DNA from: a virus
DNA length: 64,000 nt
IMG/VR virus record: IMGVR_UViG_3300022868_000014
Span: 1-64,000 of that record
Direction: 5' to 3' (one strand)
Part shown: positions 32,111 to 52,297 of the stretch, one piece after another
Numbering within the stretch: position 1 is the first letter of the stretch
Layout of the letters: each line of letters begins with the position of its first letter
Notes under the pieces: generated by a model
Seen by the model: only the letters and a program-made list of their open reading frames with translations
The model's database searches: none
Told to the model about the DNA's origin: nothing
Made by a program: the position numbers and the translations under genes

Positions 32111-32140
32111 ATACAACCGAGTATTAAACTATAGTACTGT

Positions 32141-34196: not shown

Positions 34197-34261
34197 TCAC
34201 GGAATGGCCAATAGTGCTTTCTGAGGTTATATTAATAGTATAAATATGTAGGAGTAAAACT

Positions 34262-35086
34262 ATGAACAGCATTCAATTTGTTGAATATATGAATAAACAG
34301 GCAGGACCTGGTTACACAGATGACACTATAAAAGCCGCTAAGGGTATATATGGTGATGATAAACCGGGTGCATTGGATGCCCTCAAAGGCAGAGCAAAGG
34401 CTCAGTGGCAGATGCAGCGCGCTGCTCCATCGGCCGCCCAGGCCAGAGAACAGGGAAACCTTATATCATCTTCTGATGCAGGTCTTTCTATGGACCAGCT
34501 CAAAGCAAAACGTGAACGCGTAGCCCGTGTTGATAAACCCTTCAGAGCTCAATCCAAAGTTTCACTTACAACCCCCGCCCAGTCACGATACACATCAGGC
34601 GTTGCTAGTCGTATGGGCAAGCACCTAGGAAAAGAAGACAGCACGTTTGATAAGTTTCTAGGATGGGCAACAGGGTCTCAGAATAGGAAAGCAACGGAAA
34701 TGGATGCCCTATTAAAAGATATCAAAGCCAACCCTGACGGAGAAGCAGCCCGGCAGGCAGGGTTTACACCCGGCTCCCTCTGGAATCCCAGTACGTGGGG
34801 TTCAAGTGCTATTAATAGAGGAATTGTAGATAAGTCAGTAGCCGCCAATATACCAGCCGCTGTAAAGCAACAGCAGCAAGAAGCTTTAGCAGCCTTCTGG
34901 GCTAAGAATAAAGAGTGGTTAATTGCAGCAGGTATCGGCGTAGGTGGATTAGGTCTATTACTCACAACCCTCATGATGTCAGGCGGGCAACAACAAGCCC
35001 AACAACAGCAGCAACAACCACAAGCACCCTCACCGTGGTGGGCTAATAAAAACTTTAGAGGCTATAACTTCAGAGGTAGAGCATAA
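34262..35086 (+). CDS. Putative virion protein, KxA leader, C-terminal TM
   Basis: MNSIQFVEYMNKQAG; IAAGIGVGGLGLLL. Confidence 0.7.
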   Translation: MNSIQFVEYMNKQAGPGYTDDTIKAAKGIYGDDKPGALDALKGRAKAQWQMQRAAPSAAQAREQGNLISSSDAGLSMDQLKAKRERVARVDKPFRAQSKVSLTTPAQSRYTSGVASRMGKHLGKEDSTFDKFLGWATGSQNRKATEMDALLKDIKANPDGEAARQAGFTPGSLWNPSTWGSSAINRGIVDKSVAANIPAAVKQQQQEALAAFWAKNKEWLIAAGIGVGGLGLLLTTLMMSGGQQQAQQQQQQPQAPSPWWANKNFRGYNFRGRA

Positions 35087-35925
35087 TGGATGATAGGTTA
35101 GCAAAAGAAGCATTTGTGGATGATATGTTGGACCAAGTCGGTAAATTCGACTTAGCATCTATTCCTAAGACATGGCGCAAGATGACTGGGAATCCACTAG
35201 GGTCCGCACTTGCCACAGGAGCAGCTGTTGCTTTGCCTGCTTACTTCATGGCTAGACCAATGGCTAGAGGGCTCACAAATTTAAAAGGTAGACTACTAAG
35301 GCAGTCACCTGAACAGATCCAAGCTGAATTAGCTAAGGTAAACAATGCAGGAGACTTCAGAGGTCGCCTAGCTACTATCTTAGGTTTACTAGCAGCAGGT
35401 GGGTCTTTAGCACACAATTATGTACCTAAGTCAGTGCAGCCAGACAGTGGAGGGCTTAAGAGCCTTCTAACCTGGGATCACAAGTGGCCTGACGATGGTA
35501 CGATGTCTCCAGACGAGTTTAATAAGAGGAAGGACGCTATCCCAAAGATACCGCCTAACTATCTTCAGAAGCAACAGATGGCTAAAGAAGCAGGCTACAA
35601 TGCAGCTTATATGAATCCTTTACACGACCATCCTGGTATTCCTGTTGATTACTCGCTTGACCTTATATGGGGAGACAAGTATCTTAATGGTAAAGAGAAG
35701 ATCAATGCCAGCAAACCATTTGAGAATGCTGGGGAAGGTAAATCAGGTATGATCTCCACAGGGGATCTCGCACGAGGCGCACTACGGGCCGGGTTCGGAG
35801 CAGGCGCAGGTTATCTTCTAGCCAATACAATGGGTAAAGTATTAAGTGCACCACAGGCAGTCACCCAAACACTGTCAGCAACAGGTGCCTTAGCAGGTAT
35901 GTTAAAGAATACAGGAGTAATTTAA
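35086..35925 (+). CDS. Glycine-zipper putative virion protein
   Basis: LAKEAF, MAKEAG; GFGAGAGYLLA. Confidence 0.7.
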   Translation: MDDRLAKEAFVDDMLDQVGKFDLASIPKTWRKMTGNPLGSALATGAAVALPAYFMARPMARGLTNLKGRLLRQSPEQIQAELAKVNNAGDFRGRLATILGLLAAGGSLAHNYVPKSVQPDSGGLKSLLTWDHKWPDDGTMSPDEFNKRKDAIPKIPPNYLQKQQMAKEAGYNAAYMNPLHDHPGIPVDYSLDLIWGDKYLNGKEKINASKPFENAGEGKSGMISTGDLARGALRAGFGAGAGYLLANTMGKVLSAPQAVTQTLSATGALAGMLKNTGVI

Positions 35926-36261
35926 ATGTCAAAACCAATAGAACAATATTGTAACTATATGCATAAAGAGGCGGTTAATCCATTAGCAGCCTTATATATA
36001 GCTTATACATCTGGAGAAGCACTCTCAGGACAGGCTATGTCCATGGGGCTCGCTCTAGCTGCACTAGCAGGAGGAACCGGAGGTTATGTCGCGTCTAAAC
36101 TCACCTCTCCAGGTAAGAGAGATGTTAAGAACGTACAAAAAGCTTTCCTTCGGGATAAATTGCAGAGTGAACTGTCGAGGTCTAATCGCGAGGAACAGCT
36201 CTCTCAGTTAAAAGAACAGAGTTTACCTGGGGCTCCCAAACCTAAGAGTTTACATATATGA
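35926..36261 (+). CDS. Glycine-zipper putative virion protein
   Basis: YCNYMHKEAV; ALAGGTGGY. Confidence 0.7.
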   Translation: MSKPIEQYCNYMHKEAVNPLAALYIAYTSGEALSGQAMSMGLALAALAGGTGGYVASKLTSPGKRDVKNVQKAFLRDKLQSELSRSNREEQLSQLKEQSLPGAPKPKSLHI

Positions 36262-36593
36262 GTGACACAATTAAGGAGGTAGAAGAACCCACATCTATCA
36301 AGATAACAGGGGACTTCGAGGGAATACCATATAGAGGTGTTCCAATCAATCTGAAGAAGACGGATAAGCCCGAAGACTTCATGAAGTTGAACACGGTATT
36401 ATACGTCAAACGGTTTGAGCTGTCTGATGAGAAACAGCTTAAAGAATATGAAGAAGTATGTCAAAAAATACAGGATGGCCACGCACAACAATCCTATGAG
36501 AAAATGGAGTACATACCTGATGAAAAGCATTGGGTAGCTTTAGTACGATGGATAGACTACTGGTACAGTCCACTGGGAGAACCTGAAAAATGA
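36258..36593 (+). CDS. Hypothetical protein
   Basis: ATGA-coupled on both sides. Confidence 0.7.
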   Translation: MSDTIKEVEEPTSIKITGDFEGIPYRGVPINLKKTDKPEDFMKLNTVLYVKRFELSDEKQLKEYEEVCQKIQDGHAQQSYEKMEYIPDEKHWVALVRWIDYWYSPLGEPEK

Positions 36594-37678
36594 TAAAGAA
36601 ACAAGCCGAGTCCACATCAGAGATGACTCCCGGTACACTCGCGAATCTCGCACTGAATCCGTGGGCATCAGTACTGCCGGGTTCTAAATACTTTATACCC
36701 GAGTTTATTGAGAATATGAAGGCTAAGTATAGGGATAACCCTCCAATACCCTTTACAGGTAATGCATCTTTTGATAAGAATCTGTTTCATGGTATGGCAA
36801 CAGGTGGTACAGCTATGGCTCTAGCAGCATTGGCTCGGTACATCATGCATACATCGCAGGATAAAGAGCTAGACAAAACACTTAGAACAGACTCACGTGA
36901 GGCGACCGTAGGCGCTACTAATCCTATATTCTCACCAGACCCCTACTTAGATGATTTAGCAGAAGAGCAGGCCCAGCAGGGCATAGGCATCGATAAGTCT
37001 GCGGAAGAAGCTGTCAAAGAAGAACCCAAGCCTGATACAGGCGGCGTCGATATCAGCCCATGGCTCAAAGCTATAGTTCCTTTATCCATGATGATAGGCG
37101 GCGGTATGATAGGATATCAAGGTGTTGATAAAATATTAGAGCGTAATCGTAAAAGTGAACTAGACACTGACATTGATGAGCTTAGTAATAAATTAGATAA
37201 GGCCAACTATACTAAATTAATGAGAGCACGGGGCCTAGATCCAGATGAGCTACCACCTCCTGTACCACCTGGACAAGAGATGAGCGCAGACGGGCAGGTA
37301 TCTCCTATACCTAAACAAGCCCTTGAGGATTCAGCTAAAAATGCAATTAAATCTATGGCAGCATTAGTTATGCTAAGTGTTGCAGCGAGTAGTGGTGTAC
37401 TTACGAAACGATATTTCGACGGAGAAGATCCACAGAGAGCAGAGTACAGCGAAATGCAGCAGGCTCTTAAAGAGTTAAAGATGAGAGAACAGCGTAAAAC
37501 TCCTATATCAATAGCTCCAATAGCACCAGCGCTCGAACAGAACCTTAACAAACACCTGGGTAGCCCACAATCAGCAGTAAGCCATAGTTTACCGTCCAAA
37601 ATCGAAGAGACCCCTGTAGACATGCCTGTCTCAGGTCTCAACAAAGATAAGTCGGACAGAACAATGGCATTACTATGA
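36590..37678 (+). CDS. Putative virion membrane-associated protein
   Basis: MIKKQA, DKSAE, PKQAL; three hydrophobic segments. Confidence 0.7.
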   Translation: MIKKQAESTSEMTPGTLANLALNPWASVLPGSKYFIPEFIENMKAKYRDNPPIPFTGNASFDKNLFHGMATGGTAMALAALARYIMHTSQDKELDKTLRTDSREATVGATNPIFSPDPYLDDLAEEQAQQGIGIDKSAEEAVKEEPKPDTGGVDISPWLKAIVPLSMMIGGGMIGYQGVDKILERNRKSELDTDIDELSNKLDKANYTKLMRARGLDPDELPPPVPPGQEMSADGQVSPIPKQALEDSAKNAIKSMAALVMLSVAASSGVLTKRYFDGEDPQRAEYSEMQQALKELKMREQRKTPISIAPIAPALEQNLNKHLGSPQSAVSHSLPSKIEETPVDMPVSGLNKDKSDRTMALL

Positions 37679-40600
37679 CCCAAACATTTTTATCGGAATT
37701 AAAGAAGCAACCTACGTACAGGTATGACATTTTAGATTTTGATGGCATAAGAAACGCCACAATGGATAATGTCAAAGCTGCTGTATCGCAACGTTTCCCT
37801 TTAGAGAATGATGATTATACTCTAGCTGTAGATGAAGTGGATTACGATGGCCCGGATAGTTATTCCCTAAAGGAGCAGAAAGAAGCAATCCTAAAAGGTA
37901 GAAGCCTAGGTCGTAGACTTAAGGGTAGATGGACACTTACCGATAAACTCACAGGCAAACCAGTAAGCCAGACTAAGAAAGTTACTTTACTTAATGTTCC
38001 TTATATTACTCCACGTGGTACTTATATCCGTAATGGCCATGAGATGACTATTGGACACGTGCTGCGCCTAAACCCGGGTGTTTACTCGCGGGTAAAGGCT
38101 AATGGATTATATGAGGCCCATGTTAATGTAGAACAAGGTACAGGTTCCCAGTTTAAGATGGAGATCGACCCAGAGACTGGTGTATTTAATATTCGTAAGG
38201 GTAATGTCAATGCAAGGCTTTATCCTATTCTCAGATCCATGGGTATCCCTGATAAGAAAATAGAGGAGATGTGGGGCACTGAATTGCTCAATACCAACAG
38301 GCTGGCAAGTTCCGGAACTATGGTAACACGTAATCTTCAAAAGCTACTACCCAAGGAAGCCTCTGACGGCACGAAAGCCAATTACGTGACTCTGAGTCCG
38401 GATGATGCTAAAGCGCTCTTAGAATCGTTTGGAACGATGCGACTAGACCCTGTATCCACAGAAGCCACTCTTGGCAAGCCTTATGACAGAGTATCACCTG
38501 ATATGCTGTTAGGTACATCGGATAAACTATTAAGATTAGCTAAAGGCACATCAAAGGCAGATAATAGGGATAGCATGCAGTTTCAGAAAGTATATGGACC
38601 TGCTGAGATTTTTGCAGAACGTATTGTCAAAGATGGTGGCCGACTAGGCCGTGCCCTCTTATGGAAGGCTACAAACAAAAAGAACCTGGACTTTATGTCA
38701 TCTGGTGCACTTAATGCACATGTTGACGGAGTCTTTAATGAATCAAAATTAGCACAGTACATTGACGGGTCAAGCCCTTTTGATGCTATTGACTCAGCTA
38801 CACGTATTACACGTCTAGGCGAGGGAGGCTTGAGCAGCCAACGTTTAGCATCTGATGAGATGAGATTGGTACAGAACTCCTTTAAAGGATACATAGACCC
38901 GATCAGATCACCAGAGTCTCTCGCCGTGGGACTACAAATGTTCATGACACAGAATACACGTAAAGGACATGATGGCCTACTATATACACAGTTATTCAAC
39001 CCACGCACAGGTAAGAAAGAATGGGTAGACTCTAAGACAGCAGCAACAGCCAATATAGCTACTTCGGAGTACATGGATACTAAAGACCCTTATATCCCTC
39101 TAGTGGGTGGAGAGCGTGGTGTACATATAGCACCCCGTAAAGATGTGGACTACTATCTTAGTGATGATAATAACATGTTCTCATTGGGTTCTAACATGGT
39201 ACCATTCAAGGGCGGTGTTAAAGGTATGAGATTATTGATGGGGTGCCTGGCTCCTGATACTAATATTATAATTAAAAAAGCTGATAATAGTATATTTTAT
39301 GGTCATATAGAGAATTACGAATGGCACCAAGGAGACCAAGCGCACTCAGTTGATCAGACTACTGGAAAGACAACCTGGAGAGGGGTTGAGCGATTGGTGC
39401 CTAATTATAATAAAATAGATATGTTAGAAGTTAAATTAAAAAGTGGTAGAAAACTAACTACAACTGTTAATCATAAATGGGTGACTATGAGTGAACAAGG
39501 AACTTTAGAAAAGATCACAGCTCAGAATCTAGTTATGGGTACACCCATCCCCAGAGAAGGTTGGTTAGACTTCCCCATGGAAGAAGGCATCACATCTGTG
39601 ACCATAGGGAAGGGGGCCAAGCATAATAGTTTTTCGGGCTTTGAGATGGAGCTCACAGAGGGCGTGGGATACATGCTGGGTTTATATACTGCAGAGGGCT
39701 GGTTACAAGGAGATAGGGGCCATGGATATGGTACAACAAGCTGGGCAGTTGATAGACCGGAATTGCAGAAGAGATTATGTGCTGTATTAGATGACTTGGA
39801 TCTTAAGTATAAAATAAGACGCAATGGTGCCGACCCTCATAAGAAGGTAGTGGTCAATCACTCAGGGTTTGCACGTTGGTTACATGCTAATTTGGAAACG
39901 GGTTCTTACAAGAAGAAGGTTGCGGGACTGATCCTGCAGGCCCCCTTAGGGTGTAGGGAAGGTTTTATAGCTGGATTTTTTGACGGAGATGGTACTGTGA
40001 TGGATAGAAGAGGCTACGCCAGGCTAATTACAGGTGTGAGAAGTTATGACCTTATAGAGGGTTTGTCGAACCTATTCAGCACACTACAGATTGATACAGT
40101 GGTTAGAGAAACCACAGCCCTCGATAAACCTATCTACTTACTCGAAGTAAGGTCCCAGCATTTACATAAAGTCCCGGTGCTTACTCATAACGAAAAAGCT
40201 AAGAGGATGTCTACGCTGAAACTGTGGTCCGGTAAAAAGAATATAGATTACATACCTATGTATAAAGATCTTCATGCCAGCGTACTACAGCGATCTACCC
40301 GTAAGGAGCACTTTAGACATCGCGCATATGTTAATCAACATACGAAACAATCATTACAAGAGCGCATATCCTCCGAGGAATGCATCTGGTTAGATAGTGA
40401 GATAAGGTGGGATAGCGTGGTTGGTATAAAGGACGTAGACCCTGTAGCCATTACATATGATCTGGATCTCAATGACCACACATTCTCAGTAGGTCAAGGT
40501 ATATTTGTACATAATAGTAAATACGCTACACAGGCTTTACCCTTAGTTAATAGAGAAGCAGCACTAACACGTAGCGCAGATGGTACAGGTACCGGTTCTG

Positions 40601-43600
40601 TAGAAAGATTAGCAGGTAAATACACAGGAGCGGTCCAGGCACCTAAAGCAGGTGTCGTAAAACAAGTACGTAAAGATAAAATAATCGTTGAATATATAGA
40701 CGGGGAACAAGCAGAGCATGAGCTTTATGATAACTTCCCGGCCAACCAGAAGGGTTACCTAAGGAGCCATGCTGAAGTTAAAGCTGGTGATACGTTTAAG
40801 AAAGGTCAAGCACTAGCCTCAAGCAACTACACAGCTAATGATGGTGTGTTCGCGGGTGGTTTGAATCTTCGTACAGCTTTCATGAACTTTAAAGGCTCTA
40901 ACTATGAGGATGCTATCGTAATATCAGAGGCAGCAGCTAAGAGATTAACATCCGAGTATATGTACAATACAAAGCTACCTAAAGAAAAACATCTATCCAC
41001 AGATACCAAACGATATGTTAACATGTTCCCGGGCAAGTATACGGCAGATCAATTTGATAAGATGGATCCTAACGGTATGATTAAAACGGGTTCAGTTGTT
41101 GACAAAGGTGATCCACTTATACTAGGTATCAGAGAGAACCAGCCATCCCCCGGTACCGCGGGTCGTCGTACATTTACAGATGTCTCCGAGAAGTGGGAAC
41201 ATGATTACCCGGGAGTTATAACAGATGTAGTTACAGGTCGCGAGAATCACACAGTCTTCTCCAGAGCCAATGTACCTATGAAGGTAGGCGATAAGATGTG
41301 TTACTCTGAGGATACAGATCTGCTAACCTCAAAGGGGTGGAAGAATATTACGACTGTAACACTGGCTGATGAATTGGCCACCCTAGATCCTGATACAAAA
41401 AACATACAATACATCAACCCTTCAGCATTGCATAGCTACGACCACTCTGGTAGTATGCATGTAGTAGAAACAACACAGGTCAGCCTGTGTGTTACTGAGG
41501 AGCATAAACATTATGCAGCCCTTAGAAAGGGTAAAGAAGCAAGGTGGGAATATGGTCTTCATAAGGCCTCTGATTTATATGGTAAAAAGTACAGGCTGGA
41601 AAAAACGGGTAAGTGGAAAGGCATACACCAGGATACGTTCAAATTACCACCCGTTGTTATGGGTGTAGGTAGAACCATGAAACTTGTTGAGGGGCCTGAG
41701 GTTTCGATAGAGGCTTATCTGACTATAATGGGCATCTACCTATCCGACGGCAATTCAGTGTGGCAGCCTAGTAGTGGTTCTTATGGTTTTGATATAAGCC
41801 AAACAAAAGGTAATAATAAATATATACTGCAAAAGGCCTTTACCAGATTAGGTGTGAAGTGGTGTGAAGGGTCTCATTCTGAAAAAATAAGAGTGTATAG
41901 TAAGCACTGGGCTTCTTATCTCAAACAATTTGGAAAAGCACCCGAAAAGTACATACCTGATAACATACTGACCCTGTCACCTGATCTTTTGGCCATTTTT
42001 TATGAGTGGTTCATGTTCGGCGACGGGCACAGAACCCAAGCAGGACACGGAATAACTACAGTCTCCAGCCGTCTCGCAGGGGATTGGCAAAGATTATGTC
42101 TTCATATGGGAATGTCCGCCACTGTAAGACTTACAGATAAAGGTGGACCACGCATTATATGCGGACGAAATTGTTTTGCTAAACCATCCTACACGGTAAG
42201 CACATACCGATATAAAAACCAACCCACGATCAACCACGGGCATGCCAAGACACAGAAGGGTCAGACGGAATACTGGGATGAAAACTATTCAGGAAAGGTC
42301 TATTGCCCTGAGATGCCTTTTAATCACATAGTCTATACGAGACGTAATGGTAAAACAGTGTGGTCCGGTAATTCAAATAGATATGGTTCAAAGGGAGTAG
42401 TAGCAGAGGTTGTACCTGATAACCAAATGCCTTTAGATAAGAAGGGTAAACCATTCGAAATATTAATGAGTCCTCTAAGCGTCGTTTCCCGTACTAATCC
42501 GGCCCAGTTAATTGAAGTTGCCTATGGTAAGATAGCCCAGAAAAGAGGTAAAGCCATAGATCTACCGGCCTTTATGACTGAAGATGCGGCGGAGAAGGCG
42601 ATGGCTGATCTAAAAGAAAACGGACTATCAGATACAGATGATCTGCTTGATCCTGAAACTGGTAAGACTATTCCTAAGGTATTTAACGGGATGGCTTACT
42701 ATTATAAATTAAAACATACAGCTGAATCTAAAGAGTCAGGCCGTGGTACAGCTGGATATACAATGGATAACGTCCCAGCGTCAGGTGGCTATGAAGGTAG
42801 CAAACGGCTTGGTGGCTTAGAAACCTCAGCTTTAATAGGTCACTCTGTTATGGAAGTCCTTAAAGATGCTAAGATAGTTAAAGGGCAGGCCAACGATGAG
42901 TTCTGGCGTGCATTTAAATTTGGTAAGACTCCTACTATGCCTGGTACACCTTTAGTACATAGCAAGTTCTTTGAACACCTAAAGGGTGCTGGTATTAATG
43001 TACGTAAAGGCAAAAGCAGTATTGATATCTTCGGTATGAACAATGATGATGTAGGCCGTCTCAGCCAGGGTCGACAGGTTAAGTCAGCTGATACATTTGA
43101 GACTAACACATACAGACCAATTGATGGTGGCTTGTTCGGTAAAGATGTATTTGGACCGGACGGTAACCAGTGGGGTTATATCCCATTAGATGAACCTATC
43201 CCTAATCCTGTAATGGCTGATAGCTTACGCAGATCCTTAGATATGACATTAAAAGATTTCGAAGCAGTAGCAGAGGGCCGTAAAGAGTTGAATGGTGATA
43301 CAGGGGGTAACGCATTAAAGAAAGCCCTAGGTAAGATCGACCTTACCAGAGAGGTCAAGTATGCCATGGAAGATATAAAGCGTAGCACGGGTACGCGTAG
43401 GGACAATGCGATTAAGAAGTATAGAGCATTAGCCAGCATCAAACTGCAGAAGATGCACCCTAAAGACTTCATGCTTGATAGAATACCAGTCCTACCACCT
43501 AAGTACAGACCTATTACATCTGTAGATGGTATGACAATGGTTGCTGATGCTAACTACCTCTATAAAGCACTGATAGATGCTAACAAAGATTTTAAAGACG

Positions 43601-44412
43601 CCAGAGAACAACTACCTGATGATATGCTGGGAGATGCTAGAGCTCAGATCTATAGAGGCTTTAAAGCAATAACAGGATTACACGACCCAGATGGAATTAA
43701 GCTACAGCAGAAGAATGTAGGTGGATTACTTAAGTGGGTATTCGGTAAGAGTTCCCCTAAGTATGGTGCCTTCCAACGCCGTGTTGTAGGATCTGCTGTT
43801 GACATGGTGGGCAGAGGAACAGTCACACCTAACCCAGCATTAAAGCTTAATCAGATCGGACTCCCAGAGGAACAGGCTTGGAACATCTATGAACCATTTG
43901 TTGTTAAAGCACTCATACAGGGTGGATATAAAGCAACAGACGCAGTTAAGATGACAGCTGAGAAACACCCAGCGGCTTATTCTCTACTACAAAAGGCAGT
44001 TGAGGAACGTCCTGTAATTCTGAACAGAGCACCTTCACTCCATAAGTTTAGCTTAATGGGTTTCTGGCCAGTACTGACAAAGGGTAGCACTATACAGGTT
44101 AGTCCTAGTATTGTAGGACCATTCAATATGGATTTTGATGGAGATGCAGCAAACTTCCACGTACCTGTATCACGTAAGGCGGCACAAGAAGTTGCGAGCA
44201 AGATGATGCCCGAACAGAACCTTTTGGATATAAAAGACTTTAAAGCTCATTATAAACCAATGAGGGAATATTTGCAGGGCCTTAACATAGCAACAAGACA
44301 AAAACCAGGTCCACCTGTTAAAGTTTTTAAGAGTAAGGCAGACGCCAAAGAAGCTTACAGGAAAGGCGAGATAGACGTAGATGATCCTATTCGTATAGTG
44401 GACAAAAGCTAA
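37675..44412 (+). CDS. DNA-directed RNA polymerase: beta subunit fused to the N-terminal catalytic half of beta', with two inteins
   Basis: beta motifs GTYIRNG.E, LGEGGL, SPES..VGL, RLLMG|SKYATQA, NYEDAIVISE, GDKM|SNRYGSKGVV, YYYKL.H, KRLGGLE; beta' motifs IPVLPP.YRP, PVILNRAPSLH, FNMDFDGD (44125..44145). Confidence 0.93.
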   Translation: MTQTFLSELKKQPTYRYDILDFDGIRNATMDNVKAAVSQRFPLENDDYTLAVDEVDYDGPDSYSLKEQKEAILKGRSLGRRLKGRWTLTDKLTGKPVSQTKKVTLLNVPYITPRGTYIRNGHEMTIGHVLRLNPGVYSRVKANGLYEAHVNVEQGTGSQFKMEIDPETGVFNIRKGNVNARLYPILRSMGIPDKKIEEMWGTELLNTNRLASSGTMVTRNLQKLLPKEASDGTKANYVTLSPDDAKALLESFGTMRLDPVSTEATLGKPYDRVSPDMLLGTSDKLLRLAKGTSKADNRDSMQFQKVYGPAEIFAERIVKDGGRLGRALLWKATNKKNLDFMSSGALNAHVDGVFNESKLAQYIDGSSPFDAIDSATRITRLGEGGLSSQRLASDEMRLVQNSFKGYIDPIRSPESLAVGLQMFMTQNTRKGHDGLLYTQLFNPRTGKKEWVDSKTAATANIATSEYMDTKDPYIPLVGGERGVHIAPRKDVDYYLSDDNNMFSLGSNMVPFKGGVKGMRLLMGCLAPDTNIIIKKADNSIFYGHIENYEWHQGDQAHSVDQTTGKTTWRGVERLVPNYNKIDMLEVKLKSGRKLTTTVNHKWVTMSEQGTLEKITAQNLVMGTPIPREGWLDFPMEEGITSVTIGKGAKHNSFSGFEMELTEGVGYMLGLYTAEGWLQGDRGHGYGTTSWAVDRPELQKRLCAVLDDLDLKYKIRRNGADPHKKVVVNHSGFARWLHANLETGSYKKKVAGLILQAPLGCREGFIAGFFDGDGTVMDRRGYARLITGVRSYDLIEGLSNLFSTLQIDTVVRETTALDKPIYLLEVRSQHLHKVPVLTHNEKAKRMSTLKLWSGKKNIDYIPMYKDLHASVLQRSTRKEHFRHRAYVNQHTKQSLQERISSEECIWLDSEIRWDSVVGIKDVDPVAITYDLDLNDHTFSVGQGIFVHNSKYATQALPLVNREAALTRSADGTGTGSVERLAGKYTGAVQAPKAGVVKQVRKDKIIVEYIDGEQAEHELYDNFPANQKGYLRSHAEVKAGDTFKKGQALASSNYTANDGVFAGGLNLRTAFMNFKGSNYEDAIVISEAAAKRLTSEYMYNTKLPKEKHLSTDTKRYVNMFPGKYTADQFDKMDPNGMIKTGSVVDKGDPLILGIRENQPSPGTAGRRTFTDVSEKWEHDYPGVITDVVTGRENHTVFSRANVPMKVGDKMCYSEDTDLLTSKGWKNITTVTLADELATLDPDTKNIQYINPSALHSYDHSGSMHVVETTQVSLCVTEEHKHYAALRKGKEARWEYGLHKASDLYGKKYRLEKTGKWKGIHQDTFKLPPVVMGVGRTMKLVEGPEVSIEAYLTIMGIYLSDGNSVWQPSSGSYGFDISQTKGNNKYILQKAFTRLGVKWCEGSHSEKIRVYSKHWASYLKQFGKAPEKYIPDNILTLSPDLLAIFYEWFMFGDGHRTQAGHGITTVSSRLAGDWQRLCLHMGMSATVRLTDKGGPRIICGRNCFAKPSYTVSTYRYKNQPTINHGHAKTQKGQTEYWDENYSGKVYCPEMPFNHIVYTRRNGKTVWSGNSNRYGSKGVVAEVVPDNQMPLDKKGKPFEILMSPLSVVSRTNPAQLIEVAYGKIAQKRGKAIDLPAFMTEDAAEKAMADLKENGLSDTDDLLDPETGKTIPKVFNGMAYYYKLKHTAESKESGRGTAGYTMDNVPASGGYEGSKRLGGLETSALIGHSVMEVLKDAKIVKGQANDEFWRAFKFGKTPTMPGTPLVHSKFFEHLKGAGINVRKGKSSIDIFGMNNDDVGRLSQGRQVKSADTFETNTYRPIDGGLFGKDVFGPDGNQWGYIPLDEPIPNPVMADSLRRSLDMTLKDFEAVAEGRKELNGDTGGNALKKALGKIDLTREVKYAMEDIKRSTGTRRDNAIKKYRALASIKLQKMHPKDFMLDRIPVLPPKYRPITSVDGMTMVADANYLYKALIDANKDFKDAREQLPDDMLGDARAQIYRGFKAITGLHDPDGIKLQQKNVGGLLKWVFGKSSPKYGAFQRRVVGSAVDMVGRGTVTPNPALKLNQIGLPEEQAWNIYEPFVVKALIQGGYKATDAVKMTAEKHPAAYSLLQKAVEERPVILNRAPSLHKFSLMGFWPVLTKGSTIQVSPSIVGPFNMDFDGDAANFHVPVSRKAAQEVASKMMPEQNLLDIKDFKAHYKPMREYLQGLNIATRQKPGPPVKVFKSKADAKEAYRKGEIDVDDPIRIVDKS
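39244..40515 (+). mobile_element. Intein 1 (424 aa) with LAGLIDADG endonuclease
   Basis: CLAPDT...IFVHN|S; MLGLYTAEG, FIAGFFDGDG; removal restores RLLMG-SKYATQA. Confidence 0.92.
41299..42372 (+). mobile_element. Intein 2 (358 aa) with LAGLIDADG endonuclease
   Basis: CYSEDT...VWSGN|S; IMGIYLSDG, FMFGDG; removal restores GDKM-SNRYGSKG. Confidence 0.92.
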
Positions 44413-44487
44413 ATACCCACGTATATTTAAGGATGTATCTAAAAAGTCTAACGCGTTAGACATTTCAAATATAAACAGGAGAATACA

Positions 44488-45225
44488 ATGATTGATAGAA
44501 AACTGCTTAAAGGAGCGCGAGAAAGCCTCAAAAAAGAAGCCTTCGTACCCCTCACACCAGAAGCACAAGCGGCAGCAGCCGGCGGAGCACCTCCAATGGA
44601 CCCAGCTATGATGGGCGGAGCACCTCCAATGGACCCAGCTATGATGGGTGGAGCACCTCCAATGCCACCAATGGACCCAGCAGCTATGGGCGGAGCCCCT
44701 CCAATGGATCCAGCTATGATGGGCGGAATGCCTCCAATAGACCCAGCAACAGGAATGCCAATAGACCCAGCAACAGGAATGCCGATGGACCCAGCTATGC
44801 TGGGCGGAGCACCTCCAATGCCCCCGGAAGAAGAAGGTGACGATGTCGTTAAAGTAAGTATGGATGATCTTAAAGCACTGATGGAAGAAGTAGCAGGCGC
44901 CAAAGCAGGCGACGCTGAAAAACCACGTCGTGCAACCAATGCAGAGATCATGGACAAATTAACAGAGTTGGAAACGTCACTTTCGGCCCTCGTGGGCGGA
45001 GAACCGACTCCAGCTGATACAGGTATGATGCCTCCTGAATTAGAGGGCGCACCAATGCCTCCAGGATCCCCTGAAGAAATCTCAGCATTACTACAGAGCA
45101 CAGGAATGGGAATGCCCCCAGAAGGAGCAGCTCCACCTATGCCTCCAGGAATGCCTGTACAAGCAGCAGCCAAGTCTAACACTATTGCTAGCCTAGTTAG
45201 CTCTTTAAAGGAGAAACAGAGATGA
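44488..45225 (+). CDS. Pro/Met-rich low-complexity putative virion protein
   Basis: LKKEAF; GGAPPMDPAMM and IDPATGMP repeats. Confidence 0.75.
   Translation: MIDRKLLKGARESLKKEAFVPLTPEAQAAAAGGAPPMDPAMMGGAPPMDPAMMGGAPPMPPMDPAAMGGAPPMDPAMMGGMPPIDPATGMPIDPATGMPMDPAMLGGAPPMPPEEEGDDVVKVSMDDLKALMEEVAGAKAGDAEKPRRATNAEIMDKLTELETSLSALVGGEPTPADTGMMPPELEGAPMPPGSPEEISALLQSTGMGMPPEGAAPPMPPGMPVQAAAKSNTIASLVSSLKEKQR
44581..44820 (+). repeat. Imperfect 33-bp/24-bp coding tandem repeats
   Basis: GGCGGAGCACCTCCAATGGACCCAGCTATGATG and variants. Confidence 0.85.
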
Positions 45226-46019
45226 GCCAGAAACTTAGAGATGAATTACATAAACTAGCCAATATACAAGTGACCAAGCTACAGAAAGAAGCAGCTGAAG
45301 GGGACGCCCCAGCACCAGTAGGTGCTGCTCCTGTAACACGTGAGCTTAGCAAGGGTGAGATTATTAAGTTTATGCTTCTCTATGGTGGCGGAGGTGCAGC
45401 ACTCGGCGCAGGTCTAGGCGCTGTAACAGGTGGTATGGATAATGTCGGCGCGATAGCAGGCGGCGGCATCGCAGGCCTAGCAGGCGGATCTTTACTTGGA
45501 GTAATGGCTTTGAACGCTCGTAGAATCAGAGAACACTCTGCAGCGCGCGAACAAGGAGCAGGGACAGAGCTTATGAATAGAAGCTGGAACTTAGGGGAAG
45601 GTGGTTTACTAGAAAGCACTCCAAGTGCGGCAGCATTAGGAGCCGGAACAGGCGTAGCTGCCCAAATGTTAAGTAGTGGATCTTTAAACAAGGTGCCCGG
45701 GGCTGTAACCAAGATACCTGGGGCCTTAAAAAAGGTACCTAAACTCTTCAAGATGCCTAACTTTAAAAAATTCAAGATGCCTAGTTTCTCTAAACCCAAT
45801 CTTAAACCTGGTAATCTACAAATGGGTGCTAACGCCGGTAAGTACGTGAAAGGTGGCAGTAAAGGTAGCATTAATGGTGCTAGTATCTATAAAAACCTCC
45901 AGGGAGGAGCGAAGAAGGCCGCTTTGTTTGCACTAATGGGTATAGGTGCACAAATCGGCATCAATGAGTACAGAGGCCAGGCAAGGCATAAACGTCTTTC
46001 AAAACTACCCCCTGAATAA
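45222..46019 (+). CDS. Glycine-zipper putative virion protein
   Basis: LQKEAA; GGGGAALGAGLGA, GAIAGGGIAGLAGG. Confidence 0.75.
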   Translation: MSQKLRDELHKLANIQVTKLQKEAAEGDAPAPVGAAPVTRELSKGEIIKFMLLYGGGGAALGAGLGAVTGGMDNVGAIAGGGIAGLAGGSLLGVMALNARRIREHSAAREQGAGTELMNRSWNLGEGGLLESTPSAAALGAGTGVAAQMLSSGSLNKVPGAVTKIPGALKKVPKLFKMPNFKKFKMPSFSKPNLKPGNLQMGANAGKYVKGGSKGSINGASIYKNLQGGAKKAALFALMGIGAQIGINEYRGQARHKRLSKLPPE

Positions 46020-46021
46020 AC

Positions 46022-49000
46022 ATGATCACGACAGTAGGCAAAGAACTAGTTAAAGATGCTTTACCTGCTGCTTATCGTTCTTATGCCGAAGAGGCTATAG
46101 ATGGTAAGCGGATCGGTGATCTTATGACTGATCTTGCTAAGAAAGATCCAGGTAAGTATAACGACACCCTCCAAAAACTTAATAACATAGGTCGTAATGT
46201 AGCAACTACATATGGCCGTGAAGCTAGTATTAGTCTCAAAGATTTAACAGTCCCTGCCTCCATCAGGAATAAGAAGCAAGAACTCAAGCAAAGAATACAC
46301 CTTATAACAAATAGCACAGGCCTTACATCTGAGCAGAAGCTTGATGAGATTACGAAGGTAACCAATAAAGCCTCCAAGAACTTATCCGAAACAGTATATA
46401 GGGATCTCTTGGCCCGTAACAACTCTATGGCCAGACAAATAGAAAGTGGCTCCAGAGGGAATAAGACACAGCTTATGCAGACTGTCTTCGGTGATATGCT
46501 TATGGCAGATTCTACAGGCAAGACAATACCATTCCCAGGACTGGACTCCTATGGTAGTGGTGTATCTCCTTTACCTTATTGGCTTGGTGCTCAATCCTCC
46601 AGAAAGGGCATGTGCCTCGCAGGAAGCACATTGGTTAGAATGGCTGATTTCTCCGTTAAAGCTATAAAAGACATAACCAAAGGTGAGAGGGTAATAGGAG
46701 CCGATACTGAAGGAAATACTTTTCCGGTAGAGGTTATCGACACTTTTGATAATGGGGAACGAAAAGTTAATGATTACACGTTCAGGGTAGGAAGGATGGA
46801 TAATCTTGTAACACTAACAGCTACAGAAAACCATAAAGTCCTCTCTGTCATTAAGAATGGACAGGCAACACCTCATCTAAGAATCCCTTCTAAGCTACCT
46901 CTCAGCCAGGCATGGCGTTGTTTTGGCATGACACCGGCCGGCACCTATCAATGTAAGGCAGAAACCTCACAGCCGTATGCTCGTTTATTGGGCTTATTAT
47001 TAGGCGATGGACATTTAAGCGAGAAATATAGTGTTACGTTATCTTCAATAGATGTTGATCTAATAGAGAAGCTTAACAAGGATCTAAACAATGTTCAGCT
47101 TAAACATATAAAGAGGAATAGAACGTCCGGAGAGCCCTCCTTAGAGTACGTAGTAATTGGAAAAGGGATTAGAGACCAAGCAAAACACAGAAACCCTATA
47201 AAAAGATGGCTTGATACCTTTGGATTACTGGGCACACATTCCCATACTAAGTTTATACCAGAGGAGAGTAAGAGATGGTCAAATGCTGATATAGCTAATT
47301 TGATACATGGGTTATATGAGTCGGACGGTTGGTGCCGCAAAGGTAGTAATACATCTAACTTACCAGGTGTAGGCTGGTCGATGTCTTCAGAAATATTATT
47401 GAACCAACTAAAAGAACTGTTACAAACCAGGTTTGGCATCTACACAACAACTGTAAGCCCTGTTAAACTTTCAAAGACCAGATCCTTTAATAAGAGTGGA
47501 AAAGAGATAATACACAGACTTGATATGTACACCCTTAGAGTAACTAATGAGTCTTCTATTTATAAATTTAATAAACTACTGGCGTATGGAAGAAAATCAG
47601 ATGAATTTAGAGAACTACTTAGTAAGCATACCCCTAATAACAGGGACGATAGTCTTGTTTTCGGGTATACAGGTAAATCAGACTCCTATAAAATAAATAC
47701 GTATGATTTATCAGTGAACCACCCTGATCATCTATTTGTACTAGCTAATGGAATGGTAGTATCTAACTCCGATACACAATTCAGTACAGCTGAGTCAGGC
47801 TATTTAAGCAAACAATTAACAAACGTAGCCCATCGTAATATAGTAACTATGCCCGACTGCGGAGTTACACAAGGCCTTAAAGTAGAAGGTGACGACTCTG
47901 ACAATGTAGGCAGTATACTACTGCAGCCTGTCGGTACCCTTAAAGCCGGTACAATTATACAAGCAGAACACTTACCCCTTATGACCGACAAGAAAGTAAC
48001 AGTACGTAGCCCTTTAACATGTGAAGCACCAGAAGGCGTATGCCAACAGTGCACAGGTGTAAGAGAGAAAGGTACCTTACCTGATATAGGCGAGGCTGTG
48101 GGCATCAATGCTGTACGTTCCTTTGTAGAGGCACTAACACAATCCGGTCTTGGTTCGAAGCACATAGGCGGAGTAGGCGGTAAAGACGAAGAGGAAGTAG
48201 GTCTAACAGGTTTCAAAGAAGTAAATCAATTTGTACAAGTCCCTAAAGAGTTTGTAGGTGGTGCAATATTATCAGAAGCTGATGGTAAGGTGGCAAAGAT
48301 ACAAGACGCCCCTCAGGGTGGTAAATACATCATGGTCAGCGGTAAGCAGTATCATATTCCACGAGAACTCCACACAGCAGTAAAGATAGGCGATAATGTA
48401 GAAGCAGGTGATGTCCTTAGCAACGGAGTACCCAACCCTTCAGAGATTGTAAAGTATAAAGGTATAGGCAGTGGCAGACGTTACTTCATGGAACAGTATC
48501 ATAAAATATTAAAGAAGAATGGAGCAGGTACTAACAGGCGCAATCTGGAACTCTTTGCCCGTAGTTTCATATCCAAAATTAAGATAAATGATCCCGAGGG
48601 TTACAATGGCCATATGGTAGGTGACGTTGTGGATTATGATTATTTAGCATCCAGATGGCAACCTAGAGAGGGTTCTAAGTTGAAATCAGTCACAAGTGCA
48701 AGTAATTTATATCTAGAGAAACCCTATTTACATTATAGTATAGGGACACGAATTACGCCGAAGGTATCTAAGGAACTGAGGAGTAACGGAGTAGGACTGG
48801 TTGCAACGCATCCTAAACCACCTCCCTTTGAACCGTTTGTCGTTCGTGCTCAGGATTTTACACAACATGATAAGGATTGGATGACTCGCTTAGGCGGAGA
48901 AAATCTCAAACGTTCAACATTAGGGGCCGCTGCACGCGGGGGCACTAGCGAACGTAAGAGTACATCATACTACCCAGCAATAACAAATATTGGAGATTAA
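46022..49000 (+). CDS. RNA polymerase beta' C-terminal half, with one intein
   Basis: TTVG; SGSRGN..QL.Q; bridge helix RKGM|SDTQFSTAESGYL; RSPLTC....VCQQC.G; GEAVGI; trigger loop TQ.....HIGGV. Confidence 0.92.
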   Translation: MITTVGKELVKDALPAAYRSYAEEAIDGKRIGDLMTDLAKKDPGKYNDTLQKLNNIGRNVATTYGREASISLKDLTVPASIRNKKQELKQRIHLITNSTGLTSEQKLDEITKVTNKASKNLSETVYRDLLARNNSMARQIESGSRGNKTQLMQTVFGDMLMADSTGKTIPFPGLDSYGSGVSPLPYWLGAQSSRKGMCLAGSTLVRMADFSVKAIKDITKGERVIGADTEGNTFPVEVIDTFDNGERKVNDYTFRVGRMDNLVTLTATENHKVLSVIKNGQATPHLRIPSKLPLSQAWRCFGMTPAGTYQCKAETSQPYARLLGLLLGDGHLSEKYSVTLSSIDVDLIEKLNKDLNNVQLKHIKRNRTSGEPSLEYVVIGKGIRDQAKHRNPIKRWLDTFGLLGTHSHTKFIPEESKRWSNADIANLIHGLYESDGWCRKGSNTSNLPGVGWSMSSEILLNQLKELLQTRFGIYTTTVSPVKLSKTRSFNKSGKEIIHRLDMYTLRVTNESSIYKFNKLLAYGRKSDEFRELLSKHTPNNRDDSLVFGYTGKSDSYKINTYDLSVNHPDHLFVLANGMVVSNSDTQFSTAESGYLSKQLTNVAHRNIVTMPDCGVTQGLKVEGDDSDNVGSILLQPVGTLKAGTIIQAEHLPLMTDKKVTVRSPLTCEAPEGVCQQCTGVREKGTLPDIGEAVGINAVRSFVEALTQSGLGSKHIGGVGGKDEEEVGLTGFKEVNQFVQVPKEFVGGAILSEADGKVAKIQDAPQGGKYIMVSGKQYHIPRELHTAVKIGDNVEAGDVLSNGVPNPSEIVKYKGIGSGRRYFMEQYHKILKKNGAGTNRRNLELFARSFISKIKINDPEGYNGHMVGDVVDYDYLASRWQPREGSKLKSVTSASNLYLEKPYLHYSIGTRITPKVSKELRSNGVGLVATHPKPPPFEPFVVRAQDFTQHDKDWMTRLGGENLKRSTLGAAARGGTSERKSTSYYPAITNIGD
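46613..47767 (+). mobile_element. Intein 3 (385 aa) with LAGLIDADG endonuclease
   Basis: CLAGST...MVVSN|S; LLGLLLGDG, LIHGLYESDG; sits in the bridge helix. Confidence 0.92.
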
Positions 49001-49001
49001 A

Positions 49002-49274
49002 ATGACAGACAGTAAAAGACACGGATACCTAGCAGGCTACTTGGCGAAGGAAGCAGTAGATCCTTTAACAGGCCTTTACCAGGCTTATACTAAAGGAGGC
49101 GTTAAAGCAAAACCAGCCCTGGGTAAAGCTATGACCCCGTCACAGAGTGCACATTTCGAGGCGGATAAGCCCATAGCTAAGAAGCTGGGCCCTGTTGATT
49201 TGGAAACACTTAAGGGAAGTTTTAAACCCGTAAGAGCAACAGGAAAAGGATGTTCTAAAAAACATGGCTCCTAA
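49002..49274 (+). CDS. Small protein with GYxxGYxxKxA leader
   Basis: MTDSKRHGYLAGYLAKEAV; ATG 49002 has GGAG SD. Confidence 0.7.
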   Translation: MTDSKRHGYLAGYLAKEAVDPLTGLYQAYTKGGVKAKPALGKAMTPSQSAHFEADKPIAKKLGPVDLETLKGSFKPVRATGKGCSKKHGS

Positions 49275-49373
49275 TAAAGTCTTGAGATGGTACATGAATA
49301 AACTAGGCCTATAAACAACATTGATGCCTAGATATAAGTAAAGTAAGTACAACATTAACACAAGGAAATTACC

Positions 49374-51440
49374 ATGGCAGGTTCAAATTTCGAAGTTCAA
49401 CTAGGGCAGCTGGCCGACTCGCAAATTGCGCAGGACGCCCCAGCATTAACCCCTTATAAGGTCGGCTTTCAGCTCATCGATAAAGATGATGATGAGACTC
49501 GAGGAGTCGGTGTATCAGTATTCCAATTGAATGATCAATGGATTTACATCCCAATCTTTTATCTCAATGGACGGATCAAAGGACTCGATCTCATGTTCTT
49601 ACCGAACAGAGGACAGTTTGTTCCAACCAAAGAAACTTGGATCTCATATCTCAAAGGACAGCAACCGCTGGAATTAGGAGAATCAGGAGAACAGGAAGAA
49701 GAAGAAAGCGCTAAGACAATGCAGGGTAAACCTGGTTCAGTCAATCTCACAGAAACTGATCCTTTCCTTAAAGGTGCAGCACTCTTAGAGAAGGACGCGT
49801 GGGAGAACATGCAGACACCTGTTAAATTCGACCGAGACGTATTTGACCTGAAAGAATGGGTACCTAGGCTGGGTAAAGAAGCATCTTTCCAGTTTACAGC
49901 CACCATGATTAAACACCCTGAATTCGCTAACGCAATTCTCAAGTATTATTCTGCGGATGATTTACGCGGATTAGCTAAGACAGCTGACGAAGTAGGAGTA
50001 GATGAGTTGGACATACCTGCCGCCGACGGATCTTCTCAAGGTCAGACTGTACTTAAAGTAATCACACCTGATTCCCCAGACGCATCTGAATTAGAAGATG
50101 CAGAGAAAGAAGTGTTAATGCGTGACCGGGTCTTCTTTGTAGACAACCGTAAGGAAACATCCACTGTATTTAAAGGTGAAGTAGATCATACGAAACTAAG
50201 CACTCCTACGTGCACAGGTCTCTATGATGTTCTTATGGCTGATGGTACATTTGATCGTTTCTATGTTTTGTTTCCAAACAAGATGGAAAATAAACCGGAC
50301 AACAGTGTACTGAATACACGTGATGCTAAATTCTTATTGGTTCCTTTGAACCATAAAGATAAGTATCTCGCAGGCAAAGGATGTATCCAAGCTAAGCAGC
50401 TAACTATCACCAATGATGAAGATACAACTCTTCTTAAATCACTTGGTAGGGATCTCAAACGTATCATCAGAGAACGCTCCAATGATGCAGTGATTGTAGA
50501 CCCTTATGCTAATAGCTACCAGGTTTACTTCAATGGACCTAAGACAGCCTATGGCAATAAGATTAAAATCAGCCTAGGACTTGGAACAGCAGCTTGTATG
50601 GATCTTGGTCGTAAAGTAGATTGCATGCAGTTCACTGATAAACCTGGTAAACTCTTCATTGGTGCGGATACATTATATGTTCCTAACAATGCTAAAGTTA
50701 TTGACAGAGCAGATTACAAACTTAATCAGAAGTATGGTTTCGGTAATCCTAATACTCTAGTTAACAGCCTGATCAATAAGGTACAGCTCACTCCTGTTAA
50801 AGTATACAGCGATGGAGCATCTATTACACTTAGTAATGCTGACGTATCTGACGGCCCTATCAATAAGACAGCAGCCATGATTAAGTTAGTTAGAGATTAC
50901 GGTATCGCAGCACCTACTGCTAAGAAAATGGTTAAGGAAGCAGCTTCTCAACATAGACCAAACTCTATGCGGTATCTTGTTAAACTGGCCAAAGACCCGT
51001 TCATCAATACAGCTGAGAACTCTATAGGAGCAGCAGCTGCACCTAATGATGTAGAAGAAGTAACAGCCCCTCAAGATGGGCTTGATGATATAGACACAGC
51101 AGTTAAGGCATCCGAGAACGGTGTCAAAGAAGTTATGGACGTATCCGTACTCCGTACATTGGCAATGAACAGTAAAGCAATCGACATGGTTGAGGATTAC
51201 CTCCCTGACCTACTTCGTGGTCTCGACCGCGTAGGTAGACTGTTGTTCCTGTTCTACTGGCACAATGATGACTTCCAGGACCGTTATGGTACTGATGAGC
51301 TGACTGAGTTAGAAGAAAGCCTTCGTGATGTATTCCAGTCCTTAAGTGACTTGGTATTGTTCCTCAGTAAAAAGACTGTGGCACCTGATACATCCACCGA
51401 AGCCTTAGCAGGAGATCTTTCAGAAGATCTAGGTGCATGA
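49374..51440 (+). CDS. Putative head/structural protein (688 aa)
   Basis: In the morphogenesis cluster; many KxA sites. Confidence 0.7.
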   Translation: MAGSNFEVQLGQLADSQIAQDAPALTPYKVGFQLIDKDDDETRGVGVSVFQLNDQWIYIPIFYLNGRIKGLDLMFLPNRGQFVPTKETWISYLKGQQPLELGESGEQEEEESAKTMQGKPGSVNLTETDPFLKGAALLEKDAWENMQTPVKFDRDVFDLKEWVPRLGKEASFQFTATMIKHPEFANAILKYYSADDLRGLAKTADEVGVDELDIPAADGSSQGQTVLKVITPDSPDASELEDAEKEVLMRDRVFFVDNRKETSTVFKGEVDHTKLSTPTCTGLYDVLMADGTFDRFYVLFPNKMENKPDNSVLNTRDAKFLLVPLNHKDKYLAGKGCIQAKQLTITNDEDTTLLKSLGRDLKRIIRERSNDAVIVDPYANSYQVYFNGPKTAYGNKIKISLGLGTAACMDLGRKVDCMQFTDKPGKLFIGADTLYVPNNAKVIDRADYKLNQKYGFGNPNTLVNSLINKVQLTPVKVYSDGASITLSNADVSDGPINKTAAMIKLVRDYGIAAPTAKKMVKEAASQHRPNSMRYLVKLAKDPFINTAENSIGAAAAPNDVEEVTAPQDGLDDIDTAVKASENGVKEVMDVSVLRTLAMNSKAIDMVEDYLPDLLRGLDRVGRLLFLFYWHNDDFQDRYGTDELTELEESLRDVFQSLSDLVLFLSKKTVAPDTSTEALAGDLSEDLGA

Positions 51441-52297
51441 GTAAACAATCAGATCAGAGTTGCGTTCTCGATAATGCGCCTGATTGGCGTTGGAAGCGAG
51501 CACTGTATGAGCGGAAGAACGAGAAGGAAAGTAATAAAGACTTCGTCGCCTACGCTGATGCAACAGTTAAACTGGCTAAGCGATTCTTAGAGGTATGGGA
51601 AGACGACCGATTCCAAGGTGCCCCAGCAAGAGAGCTTATGCCCGCAATGGCATTCTTATACGACCTACATCAGGAGAATTCTCCGGGTTGTACGAAGCAT
51701 GCACTTGAAGCAGCTCTAGTGGCGAAAGCAAAGCCACAGTTCATACAATCAAATATTCATAAGAAACTGACACCTTTCATGATCAGAACTTATGAGCTTT
51801 TGTTTTATGATGTGAGAACTAAATTAGATTCACCCTTTTGGGTAGAGAAGTACATATTCGCACCGGCAGCCACACATAAGAAGGATGACTATCTGAACTC
51901 AGATTTGATCTGGAAAGTTGTGGGGTGGTCCGGAGGACCAGAGCGTCTACTTATGGATTGCATAAGAGGCCATACATATAAAGGCAAGACTGCCGACTGG
52001 ATTATAGACCATGTGGTAAGCCAGAACGCGAGGGAAACTTTGAAATACGTGCACACTAGTGGTAAATTACCAAAAGAGCTTACTATACCTACGCAGCAAC
52101 GCACATTGAGTGTTTGGGAAGATAGAACATACAAGCTTGATGAGCTCGCTGCTCAAGATGACGACGGGTTAATACCTGATAGTTTAGCTACATTTCATGG
52201 TAGAATCAAACTGAAAGATGCAGAAGCAGTAGTAAAGAAGATAGAGAAGTTAGACGCGAACATACATAAATATGAAGATGGAGATTTAGACAAATGA
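51437..52297 (+). CDS. Hypothetical protein
   Basis: ATGA-coupled; PDWRW motif. Confidence 0.7.
   Translation: MSKQSDQSCVLDNAPDWRWKRALYERKNEKESNKDFVAYADATVKLAKRFLEVWEDDRFQGAPARELMPAMAFLYDLHQENSPGCTKHALEAALVAKAKPQFIQSNIHKKLTPFMIRTYELLFYDVRTKLDSPFWVEKYIFAPAATHKKDDYLNSDLIWKVVGWSGGPERLLMDCIRGHTYKGKTADWIIDHVVSQNARETLKYVHTSGKLPKELTIPTQQRTLSVWEDRTYKLDELAAQDDDGLIPDSLATFHGRIKLKDAEAVVKKIEKLDANIHKYEDGDLDK

Follow-up and report, generated by a model that had tools for sequence, protein, structure and literature searches.

In cellular RNA polymerases (RNAPs), an alpha dimer is required for the assembly of beta and beta'. In Helicobacter and Wolbachia, the C-terminus of beta is fused head to tail to the N-terminus of beta' (rpoBC), in cellular enzymes whose beta' is intact and which use alpha2 and omega; in cyanobacterial and plastid RNAP, beta is separate, alpha and omega are present, and beta' is made in two chains, RpoC1 (gamma) and RpoC2, the first of which holds the DFDGD barrel. 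Jumbo phages of the phiKZ/AR9 type encode RNAPs of their own without alpha, and one set is packaged in the virion (PMC7598289, PMC7824862). Salmonella phage Arash (OQ632216; PMC10585845) carries, after the portal gene in its head module, one protein of 1525 amino acids (aa) that joins beta to the N-terminal part of beta' (gp206) and another of 606 aa with the C-terminal part (gp216), which the Arash paper labels "beta" and "beta'" with no mention of either fusion or split (PMC10585845). Here we analyzed a counterpart of this pair in the virus record IMGVR_UViG_3300022868_000014 of IMG/VR, within the first 64 kb of a 96,452-bp contig (positions 1 to 64,000, referred to as the window). Its larger product, here called chain A, would comprise all of beta, a joint of about 25 residues, and beta' as far as a hairpin that lies about 85 residues beyond the catalytic motif NMDFDGD; chain B would supply the remaining beta' from TTVG onward. 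The explanation that best fits the data overall, with a probability of roughly 80%, is a functional bacterial-type two-barrel RNAP of two polypeptides, belonging to a clade of phages of about 160–200 kb that includes Arash and Vibrio phage D69.

The features of the two RNAP genes are as follows (window positions; slashes mark intein junctions; ORF, open reading frame).

37675-44412, + strand: precursor of chain A (2245 aa), RNAP beta plus N-terminal part of beta' (ORF 1); Arash counterpart gp206
39244-40515, + strand: intein 1, 424 aa, LAGLIDADG type, ORF 1 aa 524-947, RLLMG/C...VHN/S, in beta motif RLLMG/SKYATQ
41299-42372, + strand: intein 2, 358 aa, LAGLIDADG type, ORF 1 aa 1209-1566, GDKM/C...SGN/S, in the beta catalytic barrel GDKM/SNRYGSKG
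42991-43140, + strand: beta to beta' fusion junction, about 25 residues, placed by alignments; beta' N-terminal zinc ribbon deleted
43513-43647, + strand: beta' clamp helices, predicted docking site of a sigma-like protein (complex model)
44125-44145, + strand: catalytic Mg-binding motif NMDFDGD
46022-49000, + strand: precursor of chain B (992 aa), C-terminal part of beta' (ORF 2); Arash counterpart gp216
46613-47767, + strand: intein 3, 385 aa, LAGLIDADG type, ORF 2 aa 198-582, SRKGM/C...VSN/S, in the bridge helix SRKGM/SDTQF

The initial annotation, made from the letters alone, had predicted a beta/beta'N fusion of about 1463 aa after intein removal and, two genes downstream, a beta'C chain of about 607 aa beginning at TTVG. 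We located the intein junctions by script on the ORF translations, and the spliced products are exactly 1463 and 607 aa long, with chain B opening on MITTVG. In the first ORF, Pfam recognizes Rpb2_6 (5.5e-41), Rpb1_2 (3.9e-26), Rpb1_1, Rpb2_3, Intein_splicing and LAGLIDADG_3, and in the second Rpb1_5 (1.6e-15), Rpb1_4, Hint and LAGLIDADG_3. Alignment to Escherichia coli places RpoB 120-1337 on residues 101-994 and RpoC 37-540 on residues 1019-1449 of spliced chain A, so that beta passes into beta' through about 25 residues, and RpoC 637-1282 on residues 68-487 of spliced chain B; identity to the E. coli subunits is about 26–27% over the aligned stretches. Both catalytic barrels are present (GDK...KG and NMDFDGD), together with the bridge helix and trigger loop. 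As predicted, chain B also holds a zinc site, seen as a Cys cluster (PDCGV, CEAPEGVCQQC); its trigger loop is altered, with the His kept and the Met and Arg changed. Compared with the canonical bacterial core, therefore, the enzyme has the catalytic elements but no match to alpha or omega and no beta' zinc ribbon. The ribbon is deleted in all fused and split forms that we aligned and kept in E. coli and in Cobetia phage Carin-5.

The last 679 residues of chain A were modelled with AlphaFold at a mean confidence (pLDDT) of 71.6, with values of 85–92 across most of beta'N; the model is ordered from about residue 200, and its C-terminal end is a helix followed by a strand. Foldseek matched this model best to gamma chains of cyanobacteria and beta' chains of plastids (E about 3e-31). 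In the rifampicin pocket (Rif cluster I of beta, encoded within 37675-38900), four residues differ from E. coli: H526 is replaced by S, S531 by T, S522 by D and L521 by F. Since the equivalents of H526 and S531 are changed, the phage enzyme may be naturally insensitive to rifampicin, or at least show lowered sensitivity.

Chain A stops at the hairpin, ending ...PIRIVDKS. The initial annotation had put this break near the cyanobacterial RpoC1/RpoC2 point, which holds only roughly. The end of chain A corresponds to about residue 562 of cyanobacterial gamma (624-626 aa), and residues 47-53 of chain B align with residues 36-43 of RpoC2, which places the phage cut 50–60 residues upstream of the cyanobacterial one. 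The hairpin at the cut site is about 18 residues longer in E. coli (beta' about 547-572). We infer that PIRIV, the final strand of chain A, and ITTVG, the opening strand of chain B, form the two arms of one hairpin. Because the hairpin is uninterrupted in fully fused relatives (see below), the two chains probably dock there non-covalently.

Three inteins sit in active-centre motifs and would have to be removed before the enzyme could work. In intein 1 we recognize Cys1, a TxxH block, the terminal HN and Ser at position +1. This clade's RNAP genes form an intein hot spot, with at least eight distinct insertion sites, all within the most conserved motifs, including a site directly after the catalytic DFDGD and mini-inteins within the trigger loop. 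Among the IMG/VR loci described below, L024 has five inteins and L019 four, and L022, L025, L029 and L036 are also intein-bearing. Many fully fused relatives carry an intein immediately after DFDGD; we considered inteins as the cause of the beta' cut and rejected this, as the common DFDGD intein lies about 85 residues upstream of the cut. At least eight insertion sites within one enzyme make a useful set for work on intein homing.

The initial annotation regarded the combination of fusion and split as distinct. This view does not hold, because the family is large and has cultured and published members: the same two chains occur in Arash, in Vibrio phages D69, D148 and D181, and in more than 1000 proteins from metagenomes. 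Alignments of the spliced chains with Arash gp206 and gp216 cover the proteins over their full length, at 30.6% identity in 1526 columns for chain A and 27.5% for chain B. Arash thus resembles the window phage in both chains, in their place in the head module, in a homologous sigma-like gene (gp10) and in the detection of both chains in virions by mass spectrometry; it differs in that identity is only 27–31%, inteins are absent, and the genes of its two chains are separated by nine small ones, several of them on the opposite strand. Vibrio phage D69 (OZ195729) has protein 261, which aligns with chain A end to end, and protein 264, which does so with chain B. In D69, D148 and D181 the chains are of 1527 and 609 aa, linked to the portal and accompanied by a sigma-like gene, but both proteins are annotated as hypothetical only, and our literature search for them found no paper. 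D148 and D181 further differ by a free-standing homing endonuclease gene of their own between the chains. The portal gene directly precedes the first RNAP gene in both Arash and D69.

We then searched 5.8 billion proteins with the stretch spanning the fusion junction and obtained 1027 matches at E<=1e-10, on contigs of up to about 205 kb. All of the 120 matches listed have PF00562 and PF00623 in one protein, 119 of these 120 end no more than four residues from the end of chain A, and in none of the 120 is beta'C found within the same protein. Proteins longer than 1650 aa account for 85 of the 120, most of which have intein or homing-endonuclease Pfam domains. Moreover, ORF analysis of 48 related loci in IMG/VR showed beta and beta'N in one ORF in every case. 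Where identity was at least 38% and the DNA reached beta'C, the latter was a separate ORF situated 1–6.7 kb downstream (20 of 20 loci). The gap between the chains is 1.6 kb in the window and 0.6–6.7 kb in the related split loci (18 compared), and at least one gene lies between the chains in every split locus. The window enzyme is thus a typical member of a large, little-studied family of phage RNAPs. Prior description of the architecture in a known phage clade had been named as grounds for doubting its novelty: the layout does exist in the Arash/D69 clade, but we found no literature that names it, which is weak evidence of absence as most subscription journals fell outside the search. Within the literature searched, the architecture itself appears to be undescribed.

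Of the 48 IMG/VR loci, 18 at 29–36% identity have beta'C in the same ORF and encode proteins of about 2020 aa without inteins. In the alignment, these fused proteins run continuously through the point between ...PIRIVDKS and MITTVG.... They share with the split enzymes the clade, the beta-beta' junction, the loss of the zinc ribbon and the position after the portal (L032, L033, L038, L047 and L052 are examples), and differ in being one chain with beta' uncut. No fully fused form was present in the GenBank phage set that we searched. As had been proposed for checking the initial annotation, we placed the enzyme in a phylogeny with cellular and phage RNAPs, using 2011 trimmed columns, a root on three cellular sequences, FastTree, and a fast IQ-TREE search with the Shimodaira–Hasegawa-like approximate likelihood ratio test (SH-aLRT). 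Some cellular rpoBC records that are labelled as phage served as outgroups. The split forms, including Arash, D69 and the window, make one clade (FastTree 0.987; SH-aLRT 100), and the fused forms fall outside it, with L052 as the first branch (FastTree 0.985; SH-aLRT 99.5). The sister to the whole clade is Carin-5, whose beta and beta' are separate. This topology argues for a single fission of an older full fusion; it is thus quite probable, from the sequences, that the two-chain form arose once, in which case the order of events would be separate genes, then full fusion, then one fission inside beta'. The fused relatives and the polarity of the fission are new here.

The other phage RNAPs that we compared are built differently. 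In the phiKZ/AR9 type, beta and beta' are each in two or three pieces and unfused, with two sets per genome and no sigma, while the window enzyme has one locus per genome, an intact and fused beta, and a sigma-like gene. None of the phiKZ/AR9 chains came up in our PDB sequence searches, being too divergent to appear. The mReC phages (PMC7481178), the Kleczkowskaviridae rhizobiophages and Carin-5 also encode bacterial-type RNAPs, and Carin-5 has an adjoining sigma gene; in all of them, however, beta and beta' are separate, uncut and located in the replication module, and Carin-5 keeps its zinc ribbon. The mReC phages were tried as members of this clade and rejected, as their supplement gives separate beta and beta' proteins (PMC7481178); five of the six metagenome identifiers tried are absent from that supplement, and the sixth occurs there on other contigs only. 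Rhizobium phages, Vibrio phage 1.031.O (beta and beta' separate, uncut and outside the head module), phage IME392 and Carin-5 were likewise rejected as having the same layout, since their architectures are other ones. Matches to "Acinetobacter phage MD-2021a" and to Staphylococcus, Listeria and Enterococcus "phages" are cellular rpoBC, as seen directly for MD-2021a and Staphylococcus. The GenBank "phage" records CAKLQH020000005, OR844998 and others are host chromosomal DNA, with rpoBC beside ribosomal protein genes.

The contig has a CheckV completeness of 52% and covers about half of a genome of about 185 kb. Homology matches show that the gene order of the head module in the window is that of Arash. 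The genes around the RNAP genes are listed below.

32298-34196, + strand: portal protein, phrog_2739; 28% identity to Arash portal gp204, E 2e-70
44488-45225, + strand: Pro/Met/Ala-rich repeat protein between both RNAP genes; no family match
45222-46019, + strand: Gly/Ala-rich ORF, 265 aa; neither a family match nor relatives in the related loci
49374-51440: structural protein similar to Arash gp218
53921-56542: structural protein similar to Arash gp222, with a fourth intein
58742-59701, + strand: major capsid protein, phrog_2522; match to Arash gp226, E 5e-28
62300-63019, + strand: peptidase, possible prohead protease, phrog_16701, E 1e-54; no Pfam match

Both RNAP genes abut or overlap adjoining genes; for instance, the Gly/Ala-rich ORF stops 2 nt before the start of chain B. 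Neither ORF between the chains has a Pfam or PHROG match, and we do not claim them as subunits. The first is made of GGAPPMDPAMM-like repeats and belongs to a cluster of 14 ORFs, the window's included, that are conserved at this place between both RNAP genes and were drawn from 19 related split loci, with no counterpart in Arash or D69. When 31600-51500 was scanned for promoters and terminators, the counts were close to chance and no operon boundary stood out clearly. The fourth intein (Intein_splicing, LAGLIDADG_3, Vint) lies inside the gp222 homologue, and a free-standing HNH homing endonuclease gene (59815-60579) is found directly 3' of the major capsid gene. We also noticed a leader, M-x(5-7)-GYxxGYLxK[KE]A, at the N-terminus of the otherwise unrelated ORFs 16469-16936, 16946-17260, 18762-19904 and 49002-49274. 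A leader of this type is also internal in ORF 15364-16467, and weaker xK[KEQ]A motifs occur near the N-termini of the ORFs at 34262, 35926, 36590, 44488 and 45222. This shared leader may serve to target proteins to the capsid or as a protease signal. We considered whether the "LVKDA" close to the beginning of chain B is such a leader or cleavage tag and rejected this, as it belongs to the conserved beta' fold.

According to the initial annotation, no alpha, omega or sigma gene is recognizable in the window. Within the window this stands, but a sigma-70-type gene lies beyond it, at contig positions 91596-92357, about 43 kb from the RNAP genes. Its product of 253 aa matches Sigma70_r3 above the cut-off (2e-8), has a C-terminal helix-turn-helix and is homologous to Arash gp10. 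The search for subunits covered the contig itself, Arash, D69 and two complete metagenomic genomes, one of 194.6 kb that has terminal repeats and one of 199.9 kb; four of the five genomes are complete. No match to alpha (PF01000, PF01193) or omega (PF01192) was found in the five genomes, while the controls matched in 14 of 14 genomes. Each of the five has one PF00623 locus and a sigma-like Sigma70_r3 protein of 239–257 aa. We modelled beta'N (465 aa) in complex with the sigma-like protein, with alignments for each of the two chains; the interface score ipSAE was 0.67 against 0.13 for the best control. Of 80 solved complexes 58 reached that mark, as did 2 of 110 mismatched pairs. The runs had 42% or more of their contacts in common, and the pLDDT of the partner was at least 67. 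The modelled interface joins residues 1947-1991 of the chain A precursor (the clamp helices) to sigma residues 40-47, 67-79 and 110-115. As sigma-beta' complexes have already been solved, the score may reflect likeness to them and not binding.

As the initial annotation had stated, the RNAP genes lie among head genes, with the portal upstream and the capsid and peptidase genes downstream. The portal gene is upstream of the RNAP genes in most related loci, and the order of portal then RNAP is kept across most of the clade, even in the deeply diverged fused forms, which argues for expression together with the head genes. In the mass spectrometry of Arash virions, gp206 has 3516 spectra, the most of any protein, with 100% coverage, followed here for comparison by gp216 with 1210, sigma gp10 with 467, the portal with 877 and the capsid protein with 1333 (PMC10585845). 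From these data we computed spectra per residue of 2.3 for gp206, 2.0 for gp216, 2.0 for gp10, 1.5 for the portal and 4.3 for the capsid protein; the near-equal values of gp206 and gp216 are compatible with a 1:1 complex. From the Arash proteome and the gene order, it is plausible that the enzyme is packaged, as the initial annotation had suggested from the gene's location, and we lean towards the view that it would enter the capsid and then the host cell together with the DNA, allowing early transcription independent of the host.

Some points weigh against the two-polypeptide RNAP described above and its proposed role. The polymerase of the window phage is known from sequence alone, on a contig that is only about 52% complete. 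Inteins 2 and 3 miss the penultimate His, and splicing is assumed. The tree is rooted by three cellular sequences and one phage outgroup, and branching among the remaining fused forms is poorly supported (0.22 / 0.5). The alpha and omega negatives come from Pfam profiles only and leave room for a divergent analogue or for the use of host alpha. The break inside beta' might itself be explained in other ways. That it stems from misassembly, a frameshift or pseudogene decay is already refuted, judging from conservation among homologues: the end point is kept to within four residues, intervening genes occur in every split locus, the catalytic motifs are intact and both products were detected in Arash. 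Rejoining of the two chains after translation by a split intein, giving a single mature beta-beta' chain, would suit a gene family so rich in inteins, but is highly improbable; where chain A ends and chain B starts, the sequence matches the continuous extein of the fused relatives residue for residue, with no extra intein-like residues and no Cys/Ser/Thr +1 context, and the Arash chains were identified by mass spectrometry as two separate proteins.

For a two-chain polymerase, the time of action and the partner have to be weighed as well. It could be made during infection for middle or late transcription, with the signal in Arash particles due to carry-over: 116 proteins were detected in the Arash preparation, among them ribonucleotide reductases, primase, helicases and RNA ligases, and the authors of that study allow for carry-over of abundant proteins (PMC10585845). 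The GYxxGYLxK[KE]A leader of several neighbouring ORFs is also absent from both RNAP chains. This account has to face the spectra per residue of both chains, which lie between those of the portal and the capsid protein, the place of the gene immediately behind the portal in most of the clade, fused forms included, and the single RNAP locus per genome; an enzyme expressed at the time of the head genes would also come too late for the current infection unless packaged. We therefore consider it unlikely, while clearly the most serious competitor of packaging. Less likely again is that the sigma-like protein redirects the host RNAP, as T4 gp55 and SPO1 gp28 do, and that the phage enzyme is sigma-free like the phiKZ type. 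Sigma factors are common in phages without an RNAP of their own (PMC7824862), the gene in the contig is remote from the RNAP genes, and the beta' zinc ribbon is missing; on the other hand, the sigma-like gene is present in all five clade genomes searched, the Arash sigma was found in virions along with the RNAP, and the modelled pair scores far above its controls on the phage clamp helices, with the caveat already given that it resembles solved complexes. On the strength of the model, it is likely, somewhat more so than packaging, that this conserved protein of about 250 aa, similar to sigma-70, binds to the clamp helices of beta' and determines which promoters are used.

Taken as a whole, the picture would be of a common clade of phages of about 160–200 kb with an alpha-free, self-sufficient holoenzyme, composed of a one- or two-chain beta-beta' and its own sigma, packed in the capsid and injected with the DNA; we put this forward tentatively, with chances slightly short of even. 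If true, it would add a further route of host-independent early transcription beside the N4 vRNAP, the phiKZ-type split RNAPs and crAss gp66. Fusion of beta to beta' may take the place of the alpha dimer as the assembly platform. The clade suggests that a covalent fusion can substitute for that platform and that later re-cutting of beta' at a surface hairpin is tolerated without loss of function, and so forms a natural experiment on the evolution of subunit boundaries in a central enzyme of transcription. The cultured members Arash and D69 make the fission history, the absence of matches to alpha and omega and the link to sigma directly testable. If the enzyme is packaged with sigma, widespread environmental phages would begin infection without the host RNAP and with a polymerase that is probably insensitive to rifampicin, which bears on the strategies by which phages take over their hosts.

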